IMG/VR virus record: IMGVR_UViG_3300045988_077029
Coordinates: 1-34,452 of that record
Length of the DNA stretch: 34,452 bases
From: a virus
Direction: 5' to 3' (one strand)
The translations under genes were made by a program, and so were the position numbers. Below, one piece after another: positions 2,400-15,664 of the stretch. Below the pieces are notes generated by a model that was given only the letters and a program-made list of their open reading frames with translations, did no database searches and was not told where the DNA came from. Every line of letters starts with the position of its first letter. Position 1 is the stretch's first letter.

Positions 2400-2737
2400 T
2401 TTGTCCTCCTCGGCCCATAGCCTAACTGTTTGATCTCCGGATAGCGCTCCGTAAACGAGTAAAATTGATTCTCACCGATATAGCTGAGCGTCGCCCGGTC
2501 AAGCCTTTCCTGGTAGACGTCTGACTCCTCGGTGCTTTGCATCGCCGGGAAGTAGACGTCATACGTCTCGCCCCACTTTTCCGCGAGGCGGCTGAGGCGG
2601 TCATAGCCCCAGCCAAAGTCCTCGTGCATCGTGATCAGCAGCGTGTCCAGCATGTACTGCTTCATCGTCCGCTGCATCACGTCCAACAGCATCTGCGTTC
2701 TCGCGTCTCTCTGCTGCAAATACCCGGATCGCTTCAT
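2396..2737 (-). CDS. Hypothetical protein (113 aa)
   Basis: Internal start MKRSGYLQQRD at 2737 forms an ATGA overlap with the parB stop. The upstream part of the ORF-track entry overlaps parB out of frame. Confidence 0.55.
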   Translation of the reverse strand: MKRSGYLQQRDARTQMLLDVMQRTMKQYMLDTLLITMHEDFGWGYDRLSRLAEKWGETYDVYFPAMQSTEESDVYQERLDRATLSYIGENQFYSFTERYPEIKQLGYGPRRTK

Positions 2738-4155
2738 TTTTCTCCTCTCTGTCTCTCGCTGATCAGCAGCCAGCTGTCGCATTTGCACTCGACGATATCC
2801 TGCACCGAGATCCCCGCGTCGGTCGAGACGAAAGGGTACTGGTCGCTTGCGCTGCCGCCGCACCGCGCCGTTAGATAGGCGCTGCCGCCTAACCCCGTGG
2901 GATAGCTCAGCACGACCAACGCGCCTTCCTCCGGCCAGTGCTCCGCATCCAGCGGCAACCATCCCGGCAAAATCACCGTCTTATCCTGCTCTGGATCATC
3001 GGTCAGACCGCAAAGATAATCCATCGTCGTGCCGAGCGTCAGGGCCAGCTTGGGCAGCGACCCTGCACCGGCAAGGCTGTTGTTCTCCCACGCGCTGTAG
3101 GTGCCGGGGTACTCGCCGATACTTTCGGCGAACTCCTTGCGCGTCAGTCCGGTCGCCTCGCGCAGCGCCTTGACGCGCTCGCAGAATTTTGGGGTCATAT
3201 TTTTGAGCCGTGGGTCGTCTGCTGCCGGATTTCGGGGCACGGCAGGCTCCGGTTCCTTCGGCGGCCGTTCGATGACCACAAAGTGGCAGGCGGTAGAGCA
3301 GGTGTCGCGGTTAAGACATTCACGGCAGCAGCCGGCACAGCGCCACTCGCCATTGCGATAGTGGTCGGCATACATCCTCGTGGCGTTCGGGCAGAAGCCG
3401 CCGGTATCCGGGCACTTATGCTTGCAGCAGGTCCAACAGGTCCGGAACTCGCGCACGTTGTTGATCGACCATGTGCGGCAGTGGTCAATAATCCAGTCGA
3501 GCAGCCGGTACTGCGTCTCGTCGTCCATGCGGGCGATCTCAAGTGCCGCGGCCTCGGGCAGCTCGCCCTCCTCCCACTTGCGCACGATCCCCGGGACCTT
3601 GAGCCCGCGCTTGATCGCGCTGAGGTTGGCGAGCTTGGTCTTGTTGACCTGCATCGCCTCGGCCACACGGTCGCGGATGCGCCCCGGAAGATCTTCGCCC
3701 GCCTCGCGGCGCTTAATGTAAATTTTCGTCAAGCGCTCTGCCTCTTCTGCCAGCAATGCAGGGGACTTCACGCGCTGTCGGTTGGCCTCGATCACGGCGC
3801 AGAGCTCCTGCTCCTCCGTCATCGCCGGCAGCACGCGGCAGAGCACGGTGAAGAACTGCTTTGCGACGTCCTCGTTCCGGTTCGCCGCGAGCAGCCGCAG
3901 CGCCGCCATGCGGCTGTGGCCAGAAATCAGGCGGTACTTGCCGTCCGTGCCCGGCACGACGGTCGGAGGCTCCAGCAGGCCATTCGCCTGAATAGATTCC
4001 ATCAGCTCGGCAAGCTTTCCGTTGTCTGGTCTCGGGTAAAAGTTCAGCGGATTGTCAAGGATGTCATCGACCGCGATCTCCCGCGTCGTGTCCGATTCGG
4101 GTACGCCCTCAACCGGCGTGAGGAACTCGCTCATATCAAACTTACCCTTAGCCAT
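2734..4155 (-). CDS. parB: ParB-like protein. ParB/Srx N-terminal domain fused to a Cys-rich middle region and an XRE-type HTH
   Basis: ParB box-like YRLISGHSRMAAL. Cys cluster CWTCCKHKCPDTGGFCPN...CAGCCRECLNRDTCSTAC. XRE HTH LREATGLTRKEFAESIGEYPGTYSAWENN...MDYLCGLTDD. 8-nt overlap with parA. Confidence 0.8.
   Translation of the reverse strand: MAKGKFDMSEFLTPVEGVPESDTTREIAVDDILDNPLNFYPRPDNGKLAELMESIQANGLLEPPTVVPGTDGKYRLISGHSRMAALRLLAANRNEDVAKQFFTVLCRVLPAMTEEQELCAVIEANRQRVKSPALLAEEAERLTKIYIKRREAGEDLPGRIRDRVAEAMQVNKTKLANLSAIKRGLKVPGIVRKWEEGELPEAAALEIARMDDETQYRLLDWIIDHCRTWSINNVREFRTCWTCCKHKCPDTGGFCPNATRMYADHYRNGEWRCAGCCRECLNRDTCSTACHFVVIERPPKEPEPAVPRNPAADDPRLKNMTPKFCERVKALREATGLTRKEFAESIGEYPGTYSAWENNSLAGAGSLPKLALTLGTTMDYLCGLTDDPEQDKTVILPGWLPLDAEHWPEEGALVVLSYPTGLGGSAYLTARCGGSASDQYPFVSTDAGISVQDIVECKCDSWLLISERQRGEK
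4088..4104 (-). repeat. Dispersed pseudo-palindrome copy S6 (GTACCCGAATCGGACAC on the minus strand), inside the 5' end of parB
   Basis: Read directly. 15/17 identical to S1-S3. Confidence 0.6.
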
Positions 4156-4933
4156 TGACCGCGCCTCCCTTGCTCAGATACTCCCGCGTGAAATCGTGAT
4201 ACGCCTTTGTCGCGGCATCCTTGGGCGCGTACCCTCTCAACGTCTTGCTCGCGTTGAGGTTGGACATGCTTGCCGGCACGGAAGCCCGCAGCGGGATCGC
4301 CGCCTCAAATGCCGGAATGCCGCTCACGCGCAAGGCCTGCTCTGCGGCCTCCTGGATGCGCGTGCTGCGCCGTTTGGTGATCAGCGCGCCCGCGATACGC
4401 AGCCGCGAATTGACCGTGCGCATGTTGGCGACCTGGCTGCGGATCTCGCCCGCGCCGTGGAGCGAGAACCCCTCCAGCTCGACGGGAATGATGATCTCAT
4501 CCGCAGCGCCCAGCGCCGCCACCGTGGCCGCATTGTAGGCGGTCGGGCAGTCGATGAGGATATAGTCTGCGCCCTCATCCTCTGCCACAGCAAGGCAAAA
4601 ATCACGGATGCCGTTTTTTGCCAGCCGCTCGCCGGTCAGGGCGGCGATGTCCGCCTTCGGCAGCTCTGCGCTGGCCGGGACGATCTTCACGCCATCGACA
4701 GGCGTATCCTGCACCAGCTCATCCCAGCAGCAGCCTGTCTCACCGGTCAGCACCTCATAGGTCGTGCCGCCGTGAATCGTGTCCGCGCGGAAAATGTCGC
4801 TCAGATTGCACTGGCCGTCCGCATCCATCACGATGACGCGCTTTCCCGCGGCCGCGAGCTCGGCCGCGAAGTTGATCGTCGTGACCGTCTTGCCGACGCC
4901 GCCCTTGTAGTTCATGATCGCAATCGTTTTCAT
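4148..4933 (-). CDS. parA: ParA/Soj-family partition ATPase
   Basis: Deviant Walker A MNYKGGVGKTVT. MDADGQCNLS. AGGAGG Shine-Dalgarno upstream. Confidence 0.9.
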   Translation of the reverse strand: MKTIAIMNYKGGVGKTVTTINFAAELAAAGKRVIVMDADGQCNLSDIFRADTIHGGTTYEVLTGETGCCWDELVQDTPVDGVKIVPASAELPKADIAALTGERLAKNGIRDFCLAVAEDEGADYILIDCPTAYNAATVAALGAADEIIIPVELEGFSLHGAGEIRSQVANMRTVNSRLRIAGALITKRRSTRIQEAAEQALRVSGIPAFEAAIPLRASVPASMSNLNASKTLRGYAPKDAATKAYHDFTREYLSKGGAVNG

Positions 4934-7570: not shown

Positions 7571-8143
7571 TCATCGTGCATACACCCCCTTTGCCAAAAC
7601 GGGGCTTGCATTTCCGCGTGAGTATGATATACTGTTCTTGCAATCGTTTTCAGACTCGAACCTCTGAGAACATGAACGCTTCGACGTGCCACCGTCGGGG
7701 CGTTCTTTTTTTGCGCCGTCAGCGTAGATCACTTGATAGGCCGCGGCAATGGTCTCGCGCAGCTCTTGCACGATGACGTCGAATTCTGATCGCTCGCTCT
7801 CGTCGATCACGCCGTCCTCGGCGATGCGCAGCAGCCCGTTGATGCAGTCCGCCGCGTCTCGCAGCCGGTTGGTCAGTGTGATCGTCGCCTGCGGCAGGGG
7901 CTTTGTCTCCACCTCCGGCAGCACGCCCAGCTGATCCGTCGCGCGGCTGTGCTCCAGCGCGAGCCACGGCAGATCGTAGACCTCAACCATCTTTGCGACC
8001 ACGCCGTCCGGTGGCACGCGTCGGCCGCTCTCATATTGTTTCAGACTTTCCGCCGAAAGTCCAAGCCGCTCGGCTGCCTCTTCCTGCGATAATCGGGTAG
8101 CCTTTCTTGCCCTTTGGTATAAATTTTGGTATTTGGGATGCAT
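7571..8143 (-). CDS. XRE-family HTH transcriptional regulator (190 aa)
   Basis: RLSQEEAAERLGLSAESLKQYESGRRVP. AAAGGAGAA Shine-Dalgarno. Confidence 0.75.
   Translation of the reverse strand: MHPKYQNLYQRARKATRLSQEEAAERLGLSAESLKQYESGRRVPPDGVVAKMVEVYDLPWLALEHSRATDQLGVLPEVETKPLPQATITLTNRLRDAADCINGLLRIAEDGVIDESERSEFDVIVQELRETIAAAYQVIYADGAKKERPDGGTSKRSCSQRFESENDCKNSISYSRGNASPVLAKGVYAR
7606..7633 (+). promoter_or_regulatory. Sigma70-type promoter TTGCAT-16-TGaTATACT (extended -10)
   Basis: Read directly on the plus strand. No plus-strand CDS follows, only a hairpin terminator about 40 nt downstream. Confidence 0.55.
7640..7712 (+). ncRNA. Candidate ~70-nt antisense sRNA (lambda oop-like), antisense to the 3' end of the XRE gene
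   Basis: Bounded by the promoter at 7606-7633 and the intrinsic terminator at 7674-7712. Confidence 0.5.
7674..7712 (+). terminator. Rho-independent terminator (13-bp stem with two G-U pairs, 6-nt loop, U7)
   Basis: gaacgcttcgacg-tgccac-cgtcggggcgttc followed by ttttttt. Confidence 0.7.
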
Positions 8144-8800: not shown

Positions 8801-8828
8801 TTCAATTCCTAAACTGTAAATTTATGAT
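8801..8828 (+). promoter_or_regulatory. Possible promoter of the cI-like gene, TTCAAT-16-TATGAT
   Basis: Read directly. The predicted start falls in the first ATCGGA/TCCGAT palindrome. Confidence 0.35.
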
Positions 8829-8829
8829 A
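8810..8829 (+). repeat. Switch-region box B, TAAACTGTAAATTTATGATA
   Basis: Direct repeat of box A, 166 bp away. Confidence 0.5.
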
Positions 8830-8830
8830 A

Positions 8831-8875
8831 ATCGGATTTTTCCGATTGTCAATACCGCAATCGGACTTTTCCGAA
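8831..8875. promoter_or_regulatory. Two operator-like palindromes, ATCGGA-tttt-TCCGAT (8831-8846) and ATCGGA-cttt-TCCGAA (8860-8875)
   Basis: Read directly. 29-bp centre-to-centre spacing, between the divergent cro-like and cI-like genes. Confidence 0.6.
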
Positions 8876-10191: not shown

Positions 10192-11241
10192 ATGGCCAAA
10201 TATCCAAAATACTACGTCCGGCCGGACGGCCTGCATGAGACGATCATCCGTATCAACGGCAAGCGCAAAGCCTTCCGCGGCAAGACCGACCGCGAGGTCT
10301 GGGAGAAAGTCAAGGCGTTCGACCGCGCCGCCGCCGAGGCCGAGGCCAAACAGGAAACCATAGAAGCGACCACTTTTGCCTCCCTCGCGGATGCCTGGTG
10401 GGACGAGATCGAGCCAACGCTCGAGCACAACTCAACCAAAAACTACCGCCCTGCCCTCAAGCGGGCAAAGGACGAGTTCGGCGACTGCCAGGTCTCGGAG
10501 ATCACCGCGCAGATGATCGACGCTTATATCCACGACTTTTCGGCCACTCGTGCCCGCAAAACGGCCGCGACGCAGTTGCAGATCATCAGGCAGATTTTGC
10601 GCTTTGCCGTTGTGCAAGGCGCATTGCCATATAATCCGGCCGAGGCGCTGCGCCTGCCCAAGGGCCTGAAAGTGACTTACCGCATGCCGCCGGACGAAAG
10701 CCAGGTCAAGCTTATCAAAGCCCACGCCAAAGATACCCCCTTCGGCCTGTTTGCGGCGCTGGTCTACTATACCGGCTGCCGCCGCGGCGAGGCGCTGGCC
10801 CTCACCGGCGCGGACATCGACCGCAAGGCAAAGCGGATCAGCATCACCAAATCCGTGTACTACGTCGGCAACCATGCGCAGATCAAGCAGCCGAAGACCG
10901 AAAAGGGCACGCGCGAGGTGCCGCTCCTCGACGCTCTCGACAAGTTGCTGCCGAAGCGCCTGCCCAAAGGCTACCTTTTCGCCGAGCCCAATGGTGAGCC
11001 CATGACGGACGACCATTTTTTCGATGCGTACAAAAAGTATCAACAGGCATCCGGCGTCACGGTTACCCCGCATCAGATCCGCCACGGCTACGCGACCGCA
11101 CTTTACGAGTGCGGCGTTGACTTTAAGGCGATGCAGGCCCTTCTCGGCCACGCTCAGCTCTCCACGACGATGGATATCTATACCCACGTCCGGCAAAACT
11201 CCATCAAAGCCGCCGAGGAGAAAATGCAGGAGAATTTTTAA
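10192..11241 (+). CDS. int: Tyrosine recombinase / phage integrase
   Basis: YYTGCRRGEALAL, HQIRHGYATAL, LLGHAQLSTTMDIYTHV (R-H-R-Y catalytic pattern). The start lies 1 nt after the upstream stop. Confidence 0.92.
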   Translation: MAKYPKYYVRPDGLHETIIRINGKRKAFRGKTDREVWEKVKAFDRAAAEAEAKQETIEATTFASLADAWWDEIEPTLEHNSTKNYRPALKRAKDEFGDCQVSEITAQMIDAYIHDFSATRARKTAATQLQIIRQILRFAVVQGALPYNPAEALRLPKGLKVTYRMPPDESQVKLIKAHAKDTPFGLFAALVYYTGCRRGEALALTGADIDRKAKRISITKSVYYVGNHAQIKQPKTEKGTREVPLLDALDKLLPKRLPKGYLFAEPNGEPMTDDHFFDAYKKYQQASGVTVTPHQIRHGYATALYECGVDFKAMQALLGHAQLSTTMDIYTHVRQNSIKAAEEKMQENF

Positions 11242-11336: not shown

Positions 11337-11345
11337 AAGCGAAAA

Positions 11346-11388
11346 GCCTTGGTATTACTGGAAAAACCAGTGATGCCAAGGCTTTTTT
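11346..11388 (+). terminator. Rho-independent terminator (16-bp stem, U6)
   Basis: gccttggtattactgg-aaaaa-ccagtgatgccaaggc-tttttt. Confidence 0.75.
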
Positions 11389-11463: not shown

Positions 11464-11775
11464 TCACGCGCCGCGATACATGTCCTGCAGGCGTCTGACG
11501 TCGGCAGCTCTCTCAATCTGTTTCTCGTGCAGATAGTCATAGATGGCTTTCATTTTCTCGGGCGGCTCGCCGTGCTCTTGCCGGTACTTCTGGATGACCG
11601 CCTCGACCTCTGCATGCAGCATGGTCATGTGCCGCATTTCTTCGCCGGAAAGATCGTAAAACATCTTCGCCAGCGCCGGACGCTCGTCCTTGTACTTGAG
11701 CGCGCATTTCGCGTATTTCTTCGCATCCTCGATCTCTTCGTCGACCATTTCCGACAGTTTTTCAATGAGTTTCAT
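11464..11775 (-). CDS. Four-helix-bundle / ferritin-like hypothetical protein (103 aa)
   Basis: Internal ATG with GAGGA Shine-Dalgarno. EIEDAKKYAKCAL...GEEMRHMTMLHAEVE... helical E/H-rich pattern. Confidence 0.5.
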   Translation of the reverse strand: MKLIEKLSEMVDEEIEDAKKYAKCALKYKDERPALAKMFYDLSGEEMRHMTMLHAEVEAVIQKYRQEHGEPPEKMKAIYDYLHEKQIERAADVRRLQDMYRGA

Positions 11776-11920
11776 TTTTTTCCTCGCTTTCTGCGGTCGG
11801 CTTCGGCATTGCTTTTTTGATCTCAGCGATCGCCGCGTCGCCGATCTGATTGCCGATGCTGCGCCCTGTGGGCGTGGCCACCATCGCGCCAAGCAGCATC
11901 CCGATCAAGAGCTGCACCAT
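11762..11920 (-). CDS. Small membrane peptide (52 aa)
   Basis: MVQLLIGMLLGAMVATP hydrophobic N-terminus. GAGAGGTG Shine-Dalgarno. Confidence 0.5.
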   Translation of the reverse strand: MVQLLIGMLLGAMVATPTGRSIGNQIGDAAIAEIKKAMPKPTAESEEKNETH

Positions 11921-11930
11921 CGCGCACCTC

Positions 11931-12332
11931 TCAGATCCGCTGCACGCGCAGCGCCACATTATTGACCGTAGCAGCGGCACCGGTGAGCACCAGCGTCAAA
12001 GCGGAGCCCGCAGCGCAGCAGACCTGACGCACAAGCGCCGGAATGCTGAGATCGACCGTGCCGTTGGCGGCAGCAGTCTCGGATGCAGTCGCGCCGGGAA
12101 CGGCGACGCCGTCCTTGTAGAGTGTAACGGTGACGGTTCCGGCAGCGGTAGGCGTGACGGTAACTGAGGCGTCGACATCGTAGTAGCCTGCGCCGGTAAT
12201 GTTGACAGCATTTCCGTTGAGCGCCACATCACAGCCGTAGCGGCGGATAAGGCTGCCAAGAGGGATGACACCGTCGACCGCGACTGCAGTGGGCGTCTGC
12301 ATGGCAGCGTAAAGAGCGGATTTACAAGACAT
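11931..12332 (-). CDS. Beta-sandwich protein resembling BclA C-terminal / C1q-TNF-like domains (133 aa)
   Basis: GGAGGA Shine-Dalgarno before MSCKSALY. ITGAGYYDVDASVTVTPTAAGTVTVTLYKDGVAVPGATA pattern. Confidence 0.45.
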   Translation of the reverse strand: MSCKSALYAAMQTPTAVAVDGVIPLGSLIRRYGCDVALNGNAVNITGAGYYDVDASVTVTPTAAGTVTVTLYKDGVAVPGATASETAAANGTVDLSIPALVRQVCCAAGSALTLVLTGAAATVNNVALRVQRI

Positions 12333-12427
12333 TGTTTTGTCCTCCATTCAAAAAATGGCGGGGCTTTTGCCCCGCCTGTTACCCGGCCATAGGGGCCTGC
12401 CATGTCCCCCAAGCGGGGAATATGGTA

Positions 12428-12970
12428 TTAAAGGTTGACGTTGCCGTTGCAGCCGCAAGACGCGGGGATGATCTGGCCTGCGCCGGTCGAAGCCACGCCG
12501 TACAGCGCGGGCTTGGTCAGCATGCGGCCCTCGATCGCGTCCAGACGGCGGTTGAAACCGCAGCAGCAATCGGAGATCTTCGCCGCCAAGGCGTCCGTCT
12601 GCTCCTTGGTAAAGATCCCATTCTTGAGGCTCTGGTTCTCCATCTTGAGGTCTAAGATGGTCTCCTGCAGGCGCTGCTCATAGATGCGGCTGGCCTGACT
12701 GGTGATCGCCTCGGTGCTGGCGTTGATTGCCATGCGCGTGTCGTTGCTCTGCTGCTCGATGAGATACTGCGTGCGGGACGTGTCGATGATCCCCCGCTTT
12801 TCGACCTCGCAGTTGCTCACGCGGTTGCAGCCGGTGTCATTGACGGGATACGGCATATTGCCGCGGCCAAAGCCAAAGCCGTTGCCAAAGCCGCCAAACA
12901 GCGCCGTGATGACGATGATGATAAACAGTACCGCGAGCCAGCTCATGCCGGTGCTCTGATCGTTGTTCAT
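12428..12970 (-). CDS. Membrane-anchored coiled-coil protein with a Gly-rich segment and C-terminal Cys clusters (180 aa)
   Basis: AAAGGAGA Shine-Dalgarno. WLAVLFIIIVITALFGGFGNGFGFGRG, central coiled coil, CCCGF...SCGCNGN. Confidence 0.55.
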   Translation of the reverse strand: MNNDQSTGMSWLAVLFIIIVITALFGGFGNGFGFGRGNMPYPVNDTGCNRVSNCEVEKRGIIDTSRTQYLIEQQSNDTRMAINASTEAITSQASRIYEQRLQETILDLKMENQSLKNGIFTKEQTDALAAKISDCCCGFNRRLDAIEGRMLTKPALYGVASTGAGQIIPASCGCNGNVNL

Positions 12971-13008
12971 AGTGCATTCTCCTTTCCTCAAAAAAATTAT
13001 TCCAACGG

Positions 13009-13353
13009 CTATTTCAGCCGGGGGAATTTGGTTGAGCGCCCCGCTTTGCCCTTTTGCGGGGCCTGTGAGGCGTTCTGTGCGCCGCCGAGTATCTTGTTGG
13101 CATCGGAGCGCAAAGCCTCCGGCGTCGTACCGAGAAGGCCACACAAGGCCTTTGCTTGCATTGTGCGCCCGTAGCGCGCGTAGAGGCTGTTAGCGATGTT
13201 GGGGTCGATGCCGAGGCGGCGCGCCGTGCTCTGCACGCCCTCGAGCGTGTCAGCCGTCCCGCTGATCGCCTGCTCCGCTCTCGCCGCCGCGCCTTGCAGG
13301 TTTGCGGAAGGGAACATTTTCGCCGCTGCCGCTAAGAGTTGCTTGAGGTCCAT
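13009..13353 (-). CDS. Hypothetical protein (114 aa)
   Basis: ORF track. Start overlaps the previous gene by 104 nt in another frame. Confidence 0.45.
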   Translation of the reverse strand: MDLKQLLAAAAKMFPSANLQGAAARAEQAISGTADTLEGVQSTARRLGIDPNIANSLYARYGRTMQAKALCGLLGTTPEALRSDANKILGGAQNASQAPQKGKAGRSTKFPRLK

Positions 13354-13654
13354 TTTCCTTCAGCTCCTTTACTTGGTCCGAGAGGCCCTTGATGACCTCG
13401 GCCATGTCGCTCATGGCCGACTGCATCTCGCTCATCAGCTGCTCCTGCGTTTTTGGCGGCGTGATGACGCCAAGCTCGACGAGCTTGTCGTAATACTCCT
13501 GCGTGGTGGCTTCCAGCTCGGCGTATGCCGAGGTAGTCTTGCCGATGAGCTGCTGGCGGTTGCCGAAATAGTCGGCCTGGAAAATATCACCGTTGTCGAT
13601 AACACACATCATGCAGTTTCCGCCGCTGTATCCGGCAATTGCAAACTGGTCCAT
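13250..13654 (-). CDS. Hypothetical protein (134 aa), first gene of the minus-strand accessory cassette
   Basis: AAAGGAGGTG Shine-Dalgarno 7 nt upstream of the ATG. Confidence 0.6.
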   Translation of the reverse strand: MDQFAIAGYSGGNCMMCVIDNGDIFQADYFGNRQQLIGKTTSAYAELEATTQEYYDKLVELGVITPPKTQEQLMSEMQSAMSDMAEVIKGLSDQVKELKENGPQATLSGSGENVPFRKPARRGGESGAGDQRDG

Positions 13655-13708
13655 GCGCGCGCACCTCCTTTTGTTGCCTCTATCATACCGTGGATCGCGC
13701 CCCGCAAA

Positions 13709-13736
13709 TGGTCATCGTTTGGTCATTATTTGGTCA
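13709..13736 (+). repeat. Three TGGTCA boxes at exact 11-bp phase in the divergent control region
   Basis: TGGTCA at 13709, 13720 and 13731. Confidence 0.6.
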
Positions 13737-13758
13737 AAAAATATTTTGCAAAATCCTC

Positions 13759-13787
13759 TTGACAACGCGCTAATATTAGCGTATAAT
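13759..13787 (+). promoter_or_regulatory. Perfect sigma70 consensus promoter TTGACA-17-TATAAT, with the 14-bp palindrome CGCTAATATTAGCG in the spacer
   Basis: Read directly. Palindrome at 13768-13781. Confidence 0.8.
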
Positions 13788-13832
13788 AAGCATGTAAACA
13801 AGAGAGGGGCAACACCTTGGGAGGATACAACA

Positions 13833-14219
13833 ATGACTAAGACTTATGCTTGGACGACCGCAAGAGGCGCTAAGATCTCTGCAACGATCACCTCTAACCA
13901 TATCACCCGCGAGACCGTTTATGCTGATGGCTGGAACGTCGAATGCGATTGCAGCAAGTACACGTACAGCGTGGACGAGCTCACCGTCAACGGCAAGCCG
14001 ACCGAGCTTAAAGAAATGTGGAACGAGCGCGGTATCCCCTGCATCCTGATCGCCCGCAAAGGCAACGACCGCGTGCTGGCTGCTATCCCTGATGACATTG
14101 CCGCTGATATCTATGGCGAGGAGCGCGAAGAAAACAAGCGGAAATTCGAGGCTGCCAAGAAGGCCGAGGAAATCTACGACGCGCACTGTGAAATGATGCG
14201 CAAGGCCATGAGTTACTAA
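13833..14219 (+). CDS. Hypothetical protein (128 aa), first gene behind the consensus promoter
   Basis: GGGAGGA Shine-Dalgarno. MTKTYAWTTARGAKISATI... No motif recognised. Confidence 0.65.
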   Translation: MTKTYAWTTARGAKISATITSNHITRETVYADGWNVECDCSKYTYSVDELTVNGKPTELKEMWNERGIPCILIARKGNDRVLAAIPDDIAADIYGEEREENKRKFEAAKKAEEIYDAHCEMMRKAMSY

Positions 14220-14238
14220 TGGAGGCAAGATAACCGAT

Positions 14239-14520
14239 ATGCGAAAAAAATATGCCGACTGCAAGCAGGCTGACGGTGACTGCACGACGTGCTCGCTCGT
14301 CTCTTATGGCCGCGACTGCCATAACCGCGTGATATCAAAATTGGAATGGTCGCGCCGCATGGCCGAGCTGACGCAAGCCAGCCTTGCTGAGAGGTCCGGC
14401 GTGAACGTCCGCCAGATCCAGCGTGTAGAGCTGGGGGAGGCCGAAGCCGGGAACTTGACAGCCAGAAACCTGATTGCCATTGCCGACGTGCTCGGCGTAG
14501 ATGCAAAATCTTTGTTATAA
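14239..14520 (+). CDS. XRE HTH regulator with an N-terminal 4-Cys cluster (93 aa)
   Basis: CKQADGDCTTCSLVSYGRDC, then MAELTQASLAERSGVNVRQIQRVELGE. Confidence 0.7.
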   Translation: MRKKYADCKQADGDCTTCSLVSYGRDCHNRVISKLEWSRRMAELTQASLAERSGVNVRQIQRVELGEAEAGNLTARNLIAIADVLGVDAKSLL

Positions 14521-14536
14521 CAAGGGAGTGGATCAA

Positions 14537-14710
14537 ATGAGTAGCTTTTTTATTGCAAGCAAGGCCCAGGCGGAAGCGATCCTCGAAGAGTTTGAAAGGT
14601 GCTGCGACTGCGGTAGTTGCGGCTTGAACACCGCCGAAGGGTGGAAATGCAGTTACCTCGCGGAACGTGCCAAAGAATACCTGGAAAAGCACCGCAACAA
14701 GAAAGAATAA
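14537..14710 (+). CDS. Small Cys-rich protein (57 aa)
   Basis: AAGGGAG Shine-Dalgarno. FERCCDCGSCGLNTAEGWKC. Confidence 0.5.
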   Translation: MSSFFIASKAQAEAILEEFERCCDCGSCGLNTAEGWKCSYLAERAKEYLEKHRNKKE

Positions 14711-14750
14711 AAAAAGAGAGCGCCGATTAACCTCGGTGCTCTCTTTGTCC
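14709..14750. terminator. Bidirectional hairpin terminator between convergent units (A-run, 12-bp stem, short T-run)
   Basis: aaaaa-agagagcgccga-ttaacc-tcggtgctctct-tt. Strong U-run on the minus-strand reading. Confidence 0.65.
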
Positions 14751-15047
14751 ATCTGCGATTTTTTCGTATGCCCGCCTGCGGCAGCGGTTGACTGCCTCCG
14801 GCGACAGGTGCAGCGCTGCACACACTTGCGCGTAGCTCTTGCGCCGCACGTCGCACTCGATAAGGCATGCCATCTCATCGGGAGGCAGGTCATAAGATTG
14901 GATGTATGCTATAGCCCTGCGTGGGGCCATAGAGGATAGTTGCGCGCGGATCGCTCGGTGCTGACTATTCATGCCCGTGTAAGGCTTGCAGAGGCGCTTG
15001 CGCGTGGGCTTTCGCCGCCCGCTCCTTCCTGTGCCCAAATCGGACAC
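14727..15047 (-). CDS. Sigma-70 region-4-like HTH protein (106 aa)
   Basis: LPPDEMACLIECDVRRKSYAQVCAALHLSPEAVNRCRRRAYEKI. GTG start 2 nt after the endolysin stop (an alternative ATG lies at 14972). Confidence 0.55.
   Translation of the reverse strand: MSDLGTGRSGRRKPTRKRLCKPYTGMNSQHRAIRAQLSSMAPRRAIAYIQSYDLPPDEMACLIECDVRRKSYAQVCAALHLSPEAVNRCRRRAYEKIADGQREHRG
15031..15047 (+). repeat. Dispersed pseudo-palindrome copy S2, GTGCCCAAATCGGACAC
   Basis: Identical 19-mer to S1. Covers the start codon of the sigma-like gene. Confidence 0.8.
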
Positions 15048-15049
15048 CG

Positions 15050-15664
15050 TTATTTTGTTGATCTCTGGATCATCGTCACGACTTCCTGCCGCGTGATAAA
15101 TCTCTGCGGCGCGCTGCCGTCCGTGATCTTTTCGGCCTTTGCCTTTTCCCAGTCTGCCTTTGCCCAGGTCGCCACGGGCTTCGTGCCGAGCTGCGCAAGG
15201 TAGTTGTCCATCATCTTGTTAAACGTTGCCTGATCCATGTACTCCTCCATTTCCGGCGGGTACTTGCCCGCCAAAATCATACTGCCGGAATATCTCCCGT
15301 GGTCATCCCACTGGATGTGCGGCTTATCGGGGAATTTCGTCCAGTCCCCGCCCCACGAAAAGCCCACCTGCTTGCCGATCTGCCCGCAGCGGGCGAAGAA
15401 CGACGGATCGTCGTACTCATGCCCCTTGACGTTTTTGCAAATGTCGAACGCAAGCCCCGCCTTGACAGAGTGGAACGTCGGGCGCGTCGCGGTCTTTGCC
15501 GCGTAGCCCATGCGCGCAAGATAGCGCTGGTACTCGTCGTCTCGCACCGTCTCCGTCACGAGCACCGGAAGACCCGCCTCCTTGCAGAGGTCGAGGAAGA
15601 TGGCGCAGTTTGCCCGCACGTCGGCGCGCAGGTCGGCAATGTCCCTACTGTGATACATTGTCAA
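15050..15664 (-). CDS. Endolysin, peptidase M15 (VanY / L-Ala-D-Glu peptidase-like)
   Basis: FHSVKAGLAFDI, WGGDW, DKPHIQW (H-D-H zinc ligand pattern). Follows holin-like genes. Confidence 0.8.
   Translation of the reverse strand: MTMYHSRDIADLRADVRANCAIFLDLCKEAGLPVLVTETVRDDEYQRYLARMGYAAKTATRPTFHSVKAGLAFDICKNVKGHEYDDPSFFARCGQIGKQVGFSWGGDWTKFPDKPHIQWDDHGRYSGSMILAGKYPPEMEEYMDQATFNKMMDNYLAQLGTKPVATWAKADWEKAKAEKITDGSAPQRFITRQEVVTMIQRSTK

Follow-up and report, generated by a model that had tools for sequence, protein, structure and literature searches.

What is the role of the three small genes (g1, g2 and g3) that stand together on the plus strand of IMG/VR record IMGVR_UViG_3300045988_077029, a DNA of 34,452 nucleotides (nt) in which nearly all genes lie on the minus strand? 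The whole of this stretch, referred to below as the window, looks like an entire temperate phage genome in circularly permuted form. We interpret the region of g1, g2 and g3 as an accessory-gene cassette that is self-contained and represses itself, a 'moron' equipped with a switch of its own, carried by a temperate phage of gut Oscillospiraceae, with cargo that most likely inhibits a host function, and we give this interpretation a probability of roughly 55%. That the region is an autoregulated cassette with exchangeable cargo is very probable; that the cargo acts against host defence falls somewhat short of an even chance, and a specifically anti-CRISPR function is doubtful.

In an earlier note on this DNA, the three genes had been described as an operon driven by a TTGACA-17-TATAAT promoter with a perfect 14-bp palindrome in its spacer. 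Both elements are present. The promoter matches the sigma-70/sigma-A consensus at 12 of 12 positions and is the only match of this quality in the window, in which 0.0028 such sites would be expected from the base composition. The palindrome, CGCTAATATTAGCG (operator O1), is likewise unique in the window, with 0.06 matches expected when up to two mismatches are allowed. Since the window contains five perfect 14-bp palindromes against 2.3 expected, the palindrome by itself is unremarkable; the chance that one falls within a given 17-nt spacer is about 2.7e-4. The genes follow on the same strand, with gaps of 19 nt between g1 and g2 and 16 nt between g2 and g3, and the immediate neighbours on either side are encoded on the minus strand, just as the note had it. 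The gene starts given there were right to within one base, being at most one base off.

The promoter and operator were searched together in IMG/VR as the 29-nt DNA pattern TTGACANNNYGCTAATATTRGCGTAYAAT, which was found in 72 contigs (loci and contigs are numbered with L, protein families with F), upstream of different genes; g1 lay downstream in only 9 of the 72. Sixty loci were informative, in that they offered at least 1.3 kb of downstream sequence or had a helix-turn-helix (HTH) gene in view, and 59 of these encode a g2-type HTH protein on the same strand, 0.5–1.2 kb downstream. Guilt by association, suggested as a route in the earlier note, is seen here as a linked operator and HTH family with varied cargo. 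Between promoter and HTH gene stand at least ten unrelated first-gene families, either singly (F3, 108 amino acids (aa); F5, 86 aa; F6, 115 aa; F8, which is g1; F13; F29; and the ParB-like F30) or in pairs (F10 with F32, F11 with F12, and F16 with F13). These cargo families are mostly acidic, with isoelectric points (pI) of 4.0–5.5, and 70–130 aa long, and none is of known function. The conservation of the upstream DNA extends exactly as far as the first start codon, no matter which gene it belongs to. As far as sequence comparison goes, g1-type cargo is shown to be exchangeable; its function we infer.

The switch itself also varies in its arrangement. A second operator, GCTAATATTAGC or GCTAATTTTAGC, lies exactly 31 bp, or three helical turns, upstream in 20 of the 72 loci; L019, L025, L031 and L041 are among them, L103 also has it (positions 3273–3286), and the window has none. 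L001 has two copies of promoter and operator, one before the HTH gene and one before g1, which form separate transcription units. The gene that follows the regulator is usually rich in cysteine (F1, with 16 Cys, g3, F17 or F36). In the window, L001 and L102, the cassette stands close to the prophage end and adjoins the lysis genes; it adjoins the small terminase gene in L004, or lies among the early genes, as in Flavonifractor phage Cormatin (ON453905.1), and it is counter-oriented to its neighbours in nearly every one of these loci. Cormatin is a cultured phage, and its promoter, TTGACA-ATACGCCAATATTAGCG-TATAAT, is accompanied by the upstream second operator and followed by a counter-oriented cassette of F6, a g2-type HTH protein and an F1-like zinc-ribbon protein. 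Cormatin resides as an active prophage in F. plautii YL31, a member of the OMM12 mouse consortium (PMC10197239). Given the Cormatin switch and a g1 homologue in a Pseudoflavonifractor genome, the hosts are assigned to Oscillospiraceae of the Flavonifractor group.

The exchange works in the other direction too, as g1 elsewhere stands first behind other near-consensus promoters with different spacer palindromes, CCATATATGTGG in L002, ACCGTTACGGT in L011, and TTTATATAAA in L012 and L013. In such phages, g1 is followed by other small open reading frames (ORFs) and then by a regulator of another family, ~157 aa long and with its HTH at the C-terminus, and in L092 a 155-aa HTH protein precedes g1. 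No HTH gene adjoins g1 in the stretch examined of L013 and of the short contig L090. The earlier note had named homologues of the first protein that are ordinary structural or metabolic proteins, without linkage to HTH genes in other genomes, as an observation that would speak against its reading; since HTH genes do accompany g1 homologues elsewhere, this is not what we found.

The constant partner of the operator, g2, is a 93-aa protein with a four-cysteine (Cys4) mini-domain at residues ~5–30 and an XRE/Cro-type HTH at residues ~33–93, in accord with the four cysteines and XRE-HTH previously read from it. Residues 39–89 match HTH_3 (PF01381) with 34.3 bits against a Pfam cut-off of 23 (E = 2.4e-8), and Cys8, Cys15, Cys18 and Cys27, spaced C-x6-C-x2-C-x8-C, are invariant in 26 homologues. 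The g2 family is much the larger of the two, with 836 clusters at 90% identity, as compared to 46 for g1. Across the operator-linked HTH proteins, SGVN(I/V)RQIQRVE, the recognition region, hardly varies and the HTH domain is constant, while the N-terminal domain is exchanged, being either the Cys4 motif or an unrelated domain in proteins of ~144–154 aa. The protein has no hydrophobic segment, its peak 19-residue Kyte-Doolittle hydropathy being 1.04. Its AlphaFold2 model is poor, with a predicted local distance difference test score (pLDDT) of 60, because the alignment is too shallow. A controller (C) protein of a restriction-modification system was considered; the PADLOC 'Control_protein' matches are weak (E = 0.0036), and no restriction-modification gene was found among the scanned genes of the cassette and its neighbourhood. 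Short four-cysteine motifs, which may bind zinc or an iron-sulfur cluster, recur across the network, at residues 8–27 of g2, at residues 22–38 of g3 and in the distant g1 homologues P0142, P0155 and P0159, where the tail is a C-terminal 'GYCTxCGSYCYGDC'.

The first cargo gene, g1, encodes 128 aa in which no motif had been recognised, and our searches agree: there is no match in Pfam, NCBIfam or PADLOC, and the only PHROGs match, to phrog_1726 'anti-repressor', is non-significant (E = 0.083). The family comprises the 46 clusters mentioned above, or 134 representatives at 50% identity; two of the proteins retrieved with it, P0061 and P0135, are long immunoglobulin-like repeat proteins and were discarded as spurious matches. 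T4, W7, T9, T18, T20, T25, D32, G33, G54, P86 and E97, many of them polar, are invariant. An AlphaFold and Foldseek examination had been proposed, and for g1 it yielded a confident model (pLDDT 91) consisting of a six-stranded β domain (residues 1–84) and a C-terminal α-helix of ~40 residues (87–127). The best Foldseek match in the PDB has E = 0.23 and a template modelling (TM) score of 0.24, with nothing at E < 0.2, and a likeness to the oligonucleotide-binding fold of SSB or PriB was dismissed, the weak Foldseek rows being noise. In BFVD, the model matched only two uncharacterised phage proteins, and the g1 family profile found no match among PDB sequences. The predicted fold of g1 is therefore a confident one without a solved analogue. 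The protein is soluble, with a pI of 5.5, a peak 19-residue hydropathy of 0.81 and no transmembrane segment.

Some g1 homologues (P0033–P0035, P0062 and P0142) carry a fused N-terminal module of ~40 residues, 'EIMKxAW...ALKxAWAxAK'. The copy in P0142 corresponds to the N-terminal portion of Pfam Phage_Gp111 (E = 7.4e-13), itself a family of no assigned function, and the module also heads the cargo families F6 and F16, which are driven by the same promoter. The fusion partners of the distant homologues (this module, the C-terminal Cys tail and a 'NEGGEGYVP' tail) gave no functional clue. A search of plasmids and cultured phages for g1 found none in plasmids and only one record, an uncultured gut phage.

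The last gene, g3, encodes the expected 57-aa protein, whose cysteine motif CCDCGSC...C (C-x2-C-x2-C-x9-C) lies between two predicted helices. It matches no family in Pfam, PHROGs, PADLOC or the PDB sequence search, and its own family is tiny, with 12 clusters that share 77% identity or more and are restricted to the window lineage. With a peak 19-residue hydropathy of 0.53 it has no hydrophobic segment, and it is probably a second, lineage-restricted cargo or accessory gene of the exchangeable kind. The hairpin that closes the operon (14 base pairs, 6-nt loop) had been called bidirectional. It is indeed very stable on both strands, with −23.8 kcal/mol on the plus strand (z = −6.0) and −22.2 kcal/mol on the minus strand (z = −5.5), but a proper U-tract is found only on the minus-strand transcript (UUUUUUU, as compared to UUUGU on the plus strand). 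The hairpin is therefore mainly a canonical intrinsic terminator for the lysis-side transcript that converges on the cassette, and would stop transcription of the cassette itself less well. Within its loop lies the stop codon of the adjacent minus-strand gene.

How such a cassette might work can be outlined from co-occurrence, phasing and analogy. A host-type consensus promoter would be independent of any phage factor, so that the cassette could be transcribed at once upon DNA entry, or from the prophage, and its counter-orientation together with the terminator would insulate it from lytic transcription on the opposite strand. The palindrome CGCTAATATTAGCG is the predicted binding site of a g2 dimer, which, bound between the −35 and −10 hexamers, would block RNA polymerase; its 14 bp are the size of the phage 434 operators. 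With g2 as the putative autorepressor, the cassette would give a burst of expression on DNA entry, then shut itself down and persist at a low steady level in the lysogen. The cargo would consist of small soluble inhibitors of host functions early in infection, most plausibly of defence systems, as in acr-aca operons (acr, anti-CRISPR; aca, anti-CRISPR-associated). As a bolder extension, the Cys4 domain of g2 could sense metal or redox state and tie expression to the condition of the host. The g2 protein of a resident prophage might also silence the same locus on incoming related phages, an 'anti-anti-defence'.

Two further features lie close to the switch. In the 5′ untranslated region (UTR), a G4-N4-5-C4 hairpin stands directly before the Shine-Dalgarno (SD) sequence and is kept with the promoter in L018–L089 irrespective of the first gene; the window copy is weakened to GGGG...CCTT. 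A regulatory RNA was considered for this hairpin and rejected, there being no covariation, a folding z of −1.4 in the window and no Rfam family. Upstream of the promoter, three direct TGGTCA(T/A) repeats are found just upstream of an A/T-rich stretch from −40 to −60, in a divergent intergenic region, and other phage lineages with the same promoter have three copies of TGCCCGC/TGCCCTC at equal spacing and position. A second regulator may bind these repeats, or they may serve to control the divergent minus-strand genes, and it is uncertain whether they belong to the cassette.

The acr-aca-like architecture proposed in the earlier note (strong promoter, operator, small genes, HTH gene) is borne out by comparative genomics. 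We compared the cassette with the acr-aca loci described by Birkholz 2019 (PMC6765145), Shehreen 2022 (PMC9410906) and Feussner 2026 (PMC13551039). The binding sites of Aca proteins are one or two inverted repeats, and one repeat is always found in the core promoter of the strong acr promoters, which the cognate Aca represses (PMC9410906); Aca proteins often extend their control to adjacent operons, as predicted and for some of them demonstrated (PMC13551039). The cassette likewise has a strong consensus promoter with an inverted repeat in its core and, in related loci, a second one upstream; its HTH gene follows small genes within the operon; regulator and operator are constant while the cargo varies; and in L001 one regulator would serve two adjacent promoters. 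It differs from acr-aca loci in that no validated or recognisable anti-CRISPR occurs among the associated genes, that g2 is not demonstrably in a described Aca family (Aca1–Aca14) and bears the invariant N-terminal Cys4 mini-domain, that further Cys-rich genes follow the regulator, that it is nearly always counter-oriented, and that it belongs to phages hosted by gut Oscillospiraceae (Flavonifractor, Pseudoflavonifractor). As none of the associated genes is known to act against CRISPR or another defence, we do not file the cassette as acr-aca and say only that it works like an Aca-controlled one.

Other known systems share part of this design. The acr locus of Listeria prophages is controlled by the N-terminal HTH of AcrIIA1, and the Staphylococcus proteins AcrIIA13–15 are HTH fusions. 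There too, a temperate phage of Firmicutes has an accessory locus that adjoins the lysis genes near the prophage end, with a promoter palindrome and an XRE-type HTH, whose binding is a prediction in the case of the cassette, and among PDB sequences g2 comes closest to the AcrIIA15 HTH, at a non-significant E of 0.14. In those loci, however, the HTH is fused to the inhibitor domain, whereas in the cassette its fusion partner is the 30-residue Cys4 motif, for which relatives have other N-terminal domains. PMC9410906 also mentions AcrIIA1. In clostridial prophages, anti-CRISPR genes lie in hypervariable regions at prophage ends (PMC8545432). The AcrIIA22 regions of CAG-217 prophages (Forsberg 2021, PMC8545432) resemble our cassette in belonging to human-gut clostridial prophages, in being short hypervariable stretches of small ORFs near the prophage-host junction, and in the turnover of cargo through recombination between phages. 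There, the inhibitor AcrIIA22 is constant and a dedicated regulator was not reported, while in the cassette the regulator and operator are constant; g1, g2 and g3 had no significant PDB sequence match in a search able to detect the deposited AcrIIA22 chain. The literature search found no paper that describes the g2 regulator, the operator or g1. Tentatively, g2 and the operator may mark an undescribed hypervariable anti-defence locus, in which g1 would found a new family of inhibitors with a fold that lacks a solved analogue and a dozen further unrelated cargo families (F3, F5, F6, F10, F11–F13, F16, F29, F30 and F32) would be new inhibitors as well, a proposal that we regard as possible but clearly short of even odds.

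Several observations weigh against our preferred interpretation. For none of the cargo families, g1 and g3 included, did we find a match to Acr or anti-defence families already known or to Acr proteins of solved structure, and against Pfam and PHROGs, which are general libraries and not dedicated to Acr or anti-defence proteins, those compared gave no functional match. PDB sequence searches with g1, g3, F3, F5, F6, F10 and F32 found nothing significant, and neither g1 nor g3 matched a family in the PADLOC defence models or in NCBIfam. The PDB sequence search also returned no significant similarity of g2 to any Aca or Acr-HTH protein, a comparison that covered those with solved structures. The invariant polar residues of g1 would equally fit an enzyme or a ligand binder with another role. 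The genes that follow the HTH gene (g3, F1, F17 and F36) are Cys-rich and, g3 excepted, basic, and may be regulators instead of inhibitors. Finally, the count of 59 out of 60 overstates the independent support, because the loci are phylogenetically related.

The main rival is a moron that serves the lysogen by lysogenic conversion or prophage defence, in which g1 and/or g3 would, for example, exclude or abort superinfecting phages and g2 would only set the level of expression. Morons are known from lambdoid phages such as HK97 and HK022 as promoter-gene-terminator units, and the cassette resembles them in being an autonomous transcription unit that has a promoter and a terminator of its own, is inserted among conserved phage genes and varies between related phages; classical morons differ in being usually a single gene and in lacking a dedicated autorepressor. 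A place with the lysis genes on one side and the prophage end on the other is classical for morons, the orientation against the lytic (early, structural and lysis) genes is what would be expected of genes expressed in lysogeny, and hypervariable cargo is typical of defence hotspots too. On the other hand, the defence effectors and exclusion proteins known to date tend to be larger, to be enzymes or to sit in the membrane, whereas the cassette proteins are small (57–128 aa), soluble and unmatched in PADLOC for g1 and g3, and membrane-type superinfection exclusion is unlikely because g1, g2 and g3 have no hydrophobic segment. Moreover, the acidic character and the 70–130 aa of most of the cargo fit the usual profile of inhibitors, and the cassette is not confined to prophage ends, adjoining a terminase gene or lying among early genes in other phages. 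We therefore consider a lysogeny-directed moron unlikely, yet stronger than the remaining alternatives.

A switch resembling immI of phage P22, in which g1 would be an antirepressor or modulator of the repressor of its own or a co-resident prophage and would be held off by g2, could account for a strong promoter under a small dedicated repressor outside the main immunity region. It would also agree with the marginal match of g1 to an 'anti-repressor' PHROG, but that match is not significant, the unrelated families that take the place of g1 are hard to reconcile with a specific repressor-binding partner, and the position of the cassette is not fixed relative to the lysogeny module. The antirepressor function was thus set aside as improbable, the assignment of g1 having only the non-significant match behind it. 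A toxin-first type II toxin-antitoxin pair of the MqsRA or HigBA kind, with g1 as toxin and g2 as a zinc and HTH antitoxin that represses through the palindrome, has a superficial appeal: in mqsRA, too, a small first gene precedes a protein with a Cys4 zinc motif and an XRE HTH, MqsA, which binds a promoter palindrome. The sub-threshold matches of g2 (29.4 bits to the Y4mF/HipB-coupled antitoxin model and 14.8 bits to MqsA) are far below the cut-offs, which for the MqsA model TIGR03830 is 61.8 bits; the cysteine spacing of g2 differs from CxxC...CxxC; and g1 resembles neither MqsR nor any toxin family or solved toxin fold. Above all, the pairing is variable. With its Cys4 domain unchanged, g2 follows at least ten unrelated upstream genes and has no fixed partner, while g1 pairs with unrelated regulators, is transcribed apart from the HTH gene in L001, and has no HTH gene in view in L013 and the short contig L090. 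This variable pairing led us to reject the toxin-antitoxin explanation, which we hold to be scarcely credible.

Coordinates of the cassette and of other features of the window
Feature	Position	Strand	Remarks
Direct repeats TGGTCA(T/A)	13706–13737	plus	three copies, 11-bp period, read from the sequence
Consensus sigma-70/sigma-A promoter	13759–13787	plus	TTGACA 13759–13764, 17-nt spacer, TATAAT 13782–13787
Operator O1	13768–13781		perfect 14-bp palindrome within the promoter spacer
5′ UTR	13794–13832	plus	~40 nt; 5′ end at 13794 deduced from the position of the −10 hexamer
Hairpin in 5′ UTR	13806–13825		weakened copy
SD sequence GGGAGG	13819–13824	plus	precedes g1
g1 (F8)	13833–14219	plus	128 aa, first cargo gene
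g2	14239–14520	plus	93 aa, Cys4 mini-domain and XRE/Cro-type HTH
g3	14537–14710	plus	57 aa, Cys motif
Closing hairpin	14713–14746		14 base pairs, 6-nt loop
Sigma-70 region 4/ArpU-like gene	14727–15047	minus	immediate neighbour of the cassette
M15 endolysin gene	15050–15664	minus	next beyond the sigma-70 region 4/ArpU-like gene
Structural and lysis genes	15–34 kb
Early and replication genes	0.2–8.8 kb		ParB-HTH protein, ParA, DnaB, replication initiator-like HTH protein, 190-aa XRE protein
ParA, ParB-HTH fusion	2734–4933
190-aa XRE protein	7571–8143
Near-consensus promoter	8824–8852	minus	11 of 12 positions match
DUF4236 protein and tyrosine integrase	9.5–11.2 kb	plus
Tyrosine integrase	10192–11241	plus
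Hairpin after integrase gene	11341–11387		perfect 20-bp stem
Small-gene cluster	11.4–13.6 kb (11464–13654)	minus	BclA_C-like protein, rubrerythrin-like 142-aa protein, unknowns
BclA_C-like protein	11931–12347	minus
134-aa gene of no assigned function	13250–13654	minus	immediate neighbour of the cassette

By the gene layout of the window, the cassette has the lysis genes on one side and the integrase end on the other. L102, an integrated relative from an NCBI genome, has the same cassette ~2.6 kb from the host junction, where it adjoins a CHAP lysin. The only close GenBank phage record, MT835513 from human faeces, is 87–91% identical in the cassette and endolysin region and does not share its structural genes with the window phage, so that this region is mosaic. 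As the window phage encodes ParA, a ParB-HTH fusion and a tyrosine integrase, it may be maintained either as a plasmid prophage or in the integrated state.

Some features around the cassette deserve mention in their own right. The sigma-70 region 4/ArpU-like gene stands downstream of the endolysin gene, an odd location for a late-gene regulator. The minus-strand cluster at the prophage end is kept in the relatives L093–L102, where its last position is annotated DUF7841; in the window it also includes the 134-aa protein and a 238-aa Cys-rich ORF. The protein resembling the BclA C-terminal domain (E = 3.4e-6, under the Pfam cut-off) is exosporium-like, a curious find for a phage of gut Clostridia. 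Between the integrase gene and this converging cluster, a hairpin with T-runs on both sides is a bidirectional terminator, and an attachment site may lie nearby. Upstream of the early genes (a 199-aa ORF and then the 190-aa XRE protein, a candidate for the main repressor of the phage), the near-consensus promoter TTGACA-ATCGGAAAAATCCGATT-TATCAT contains the inverted repeat ATCGGA-N4-TCCGAT in its spacer; it is probably the early promoter and operator of the phage, built on the same design principle as the cassette switch.

Next to nothing is known of the ways in which phages that infect strictly anaerobic gut Clostridia get past host defences. The 29-nt signature of regulator and operator can be searched for, and it gives a handle on at least ten uncharacterised families of small proteins that are good candidates for inhibitors. 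Since Cormatin, an active prophage of a cultured strain used in gnotobiotic models, F. plautii YL31, carries the same switch, a test at the bench is possible. Even if the cargo had another role, the cassette would illustrate neatly how genes can be exchanged as modules, with the break placed precisely at the start codon. The cassette extends the known acr-aca-like principle to an unexplored clade of hosts, and brings with it a candidate new family of regulators and candidate families of inhibitors.

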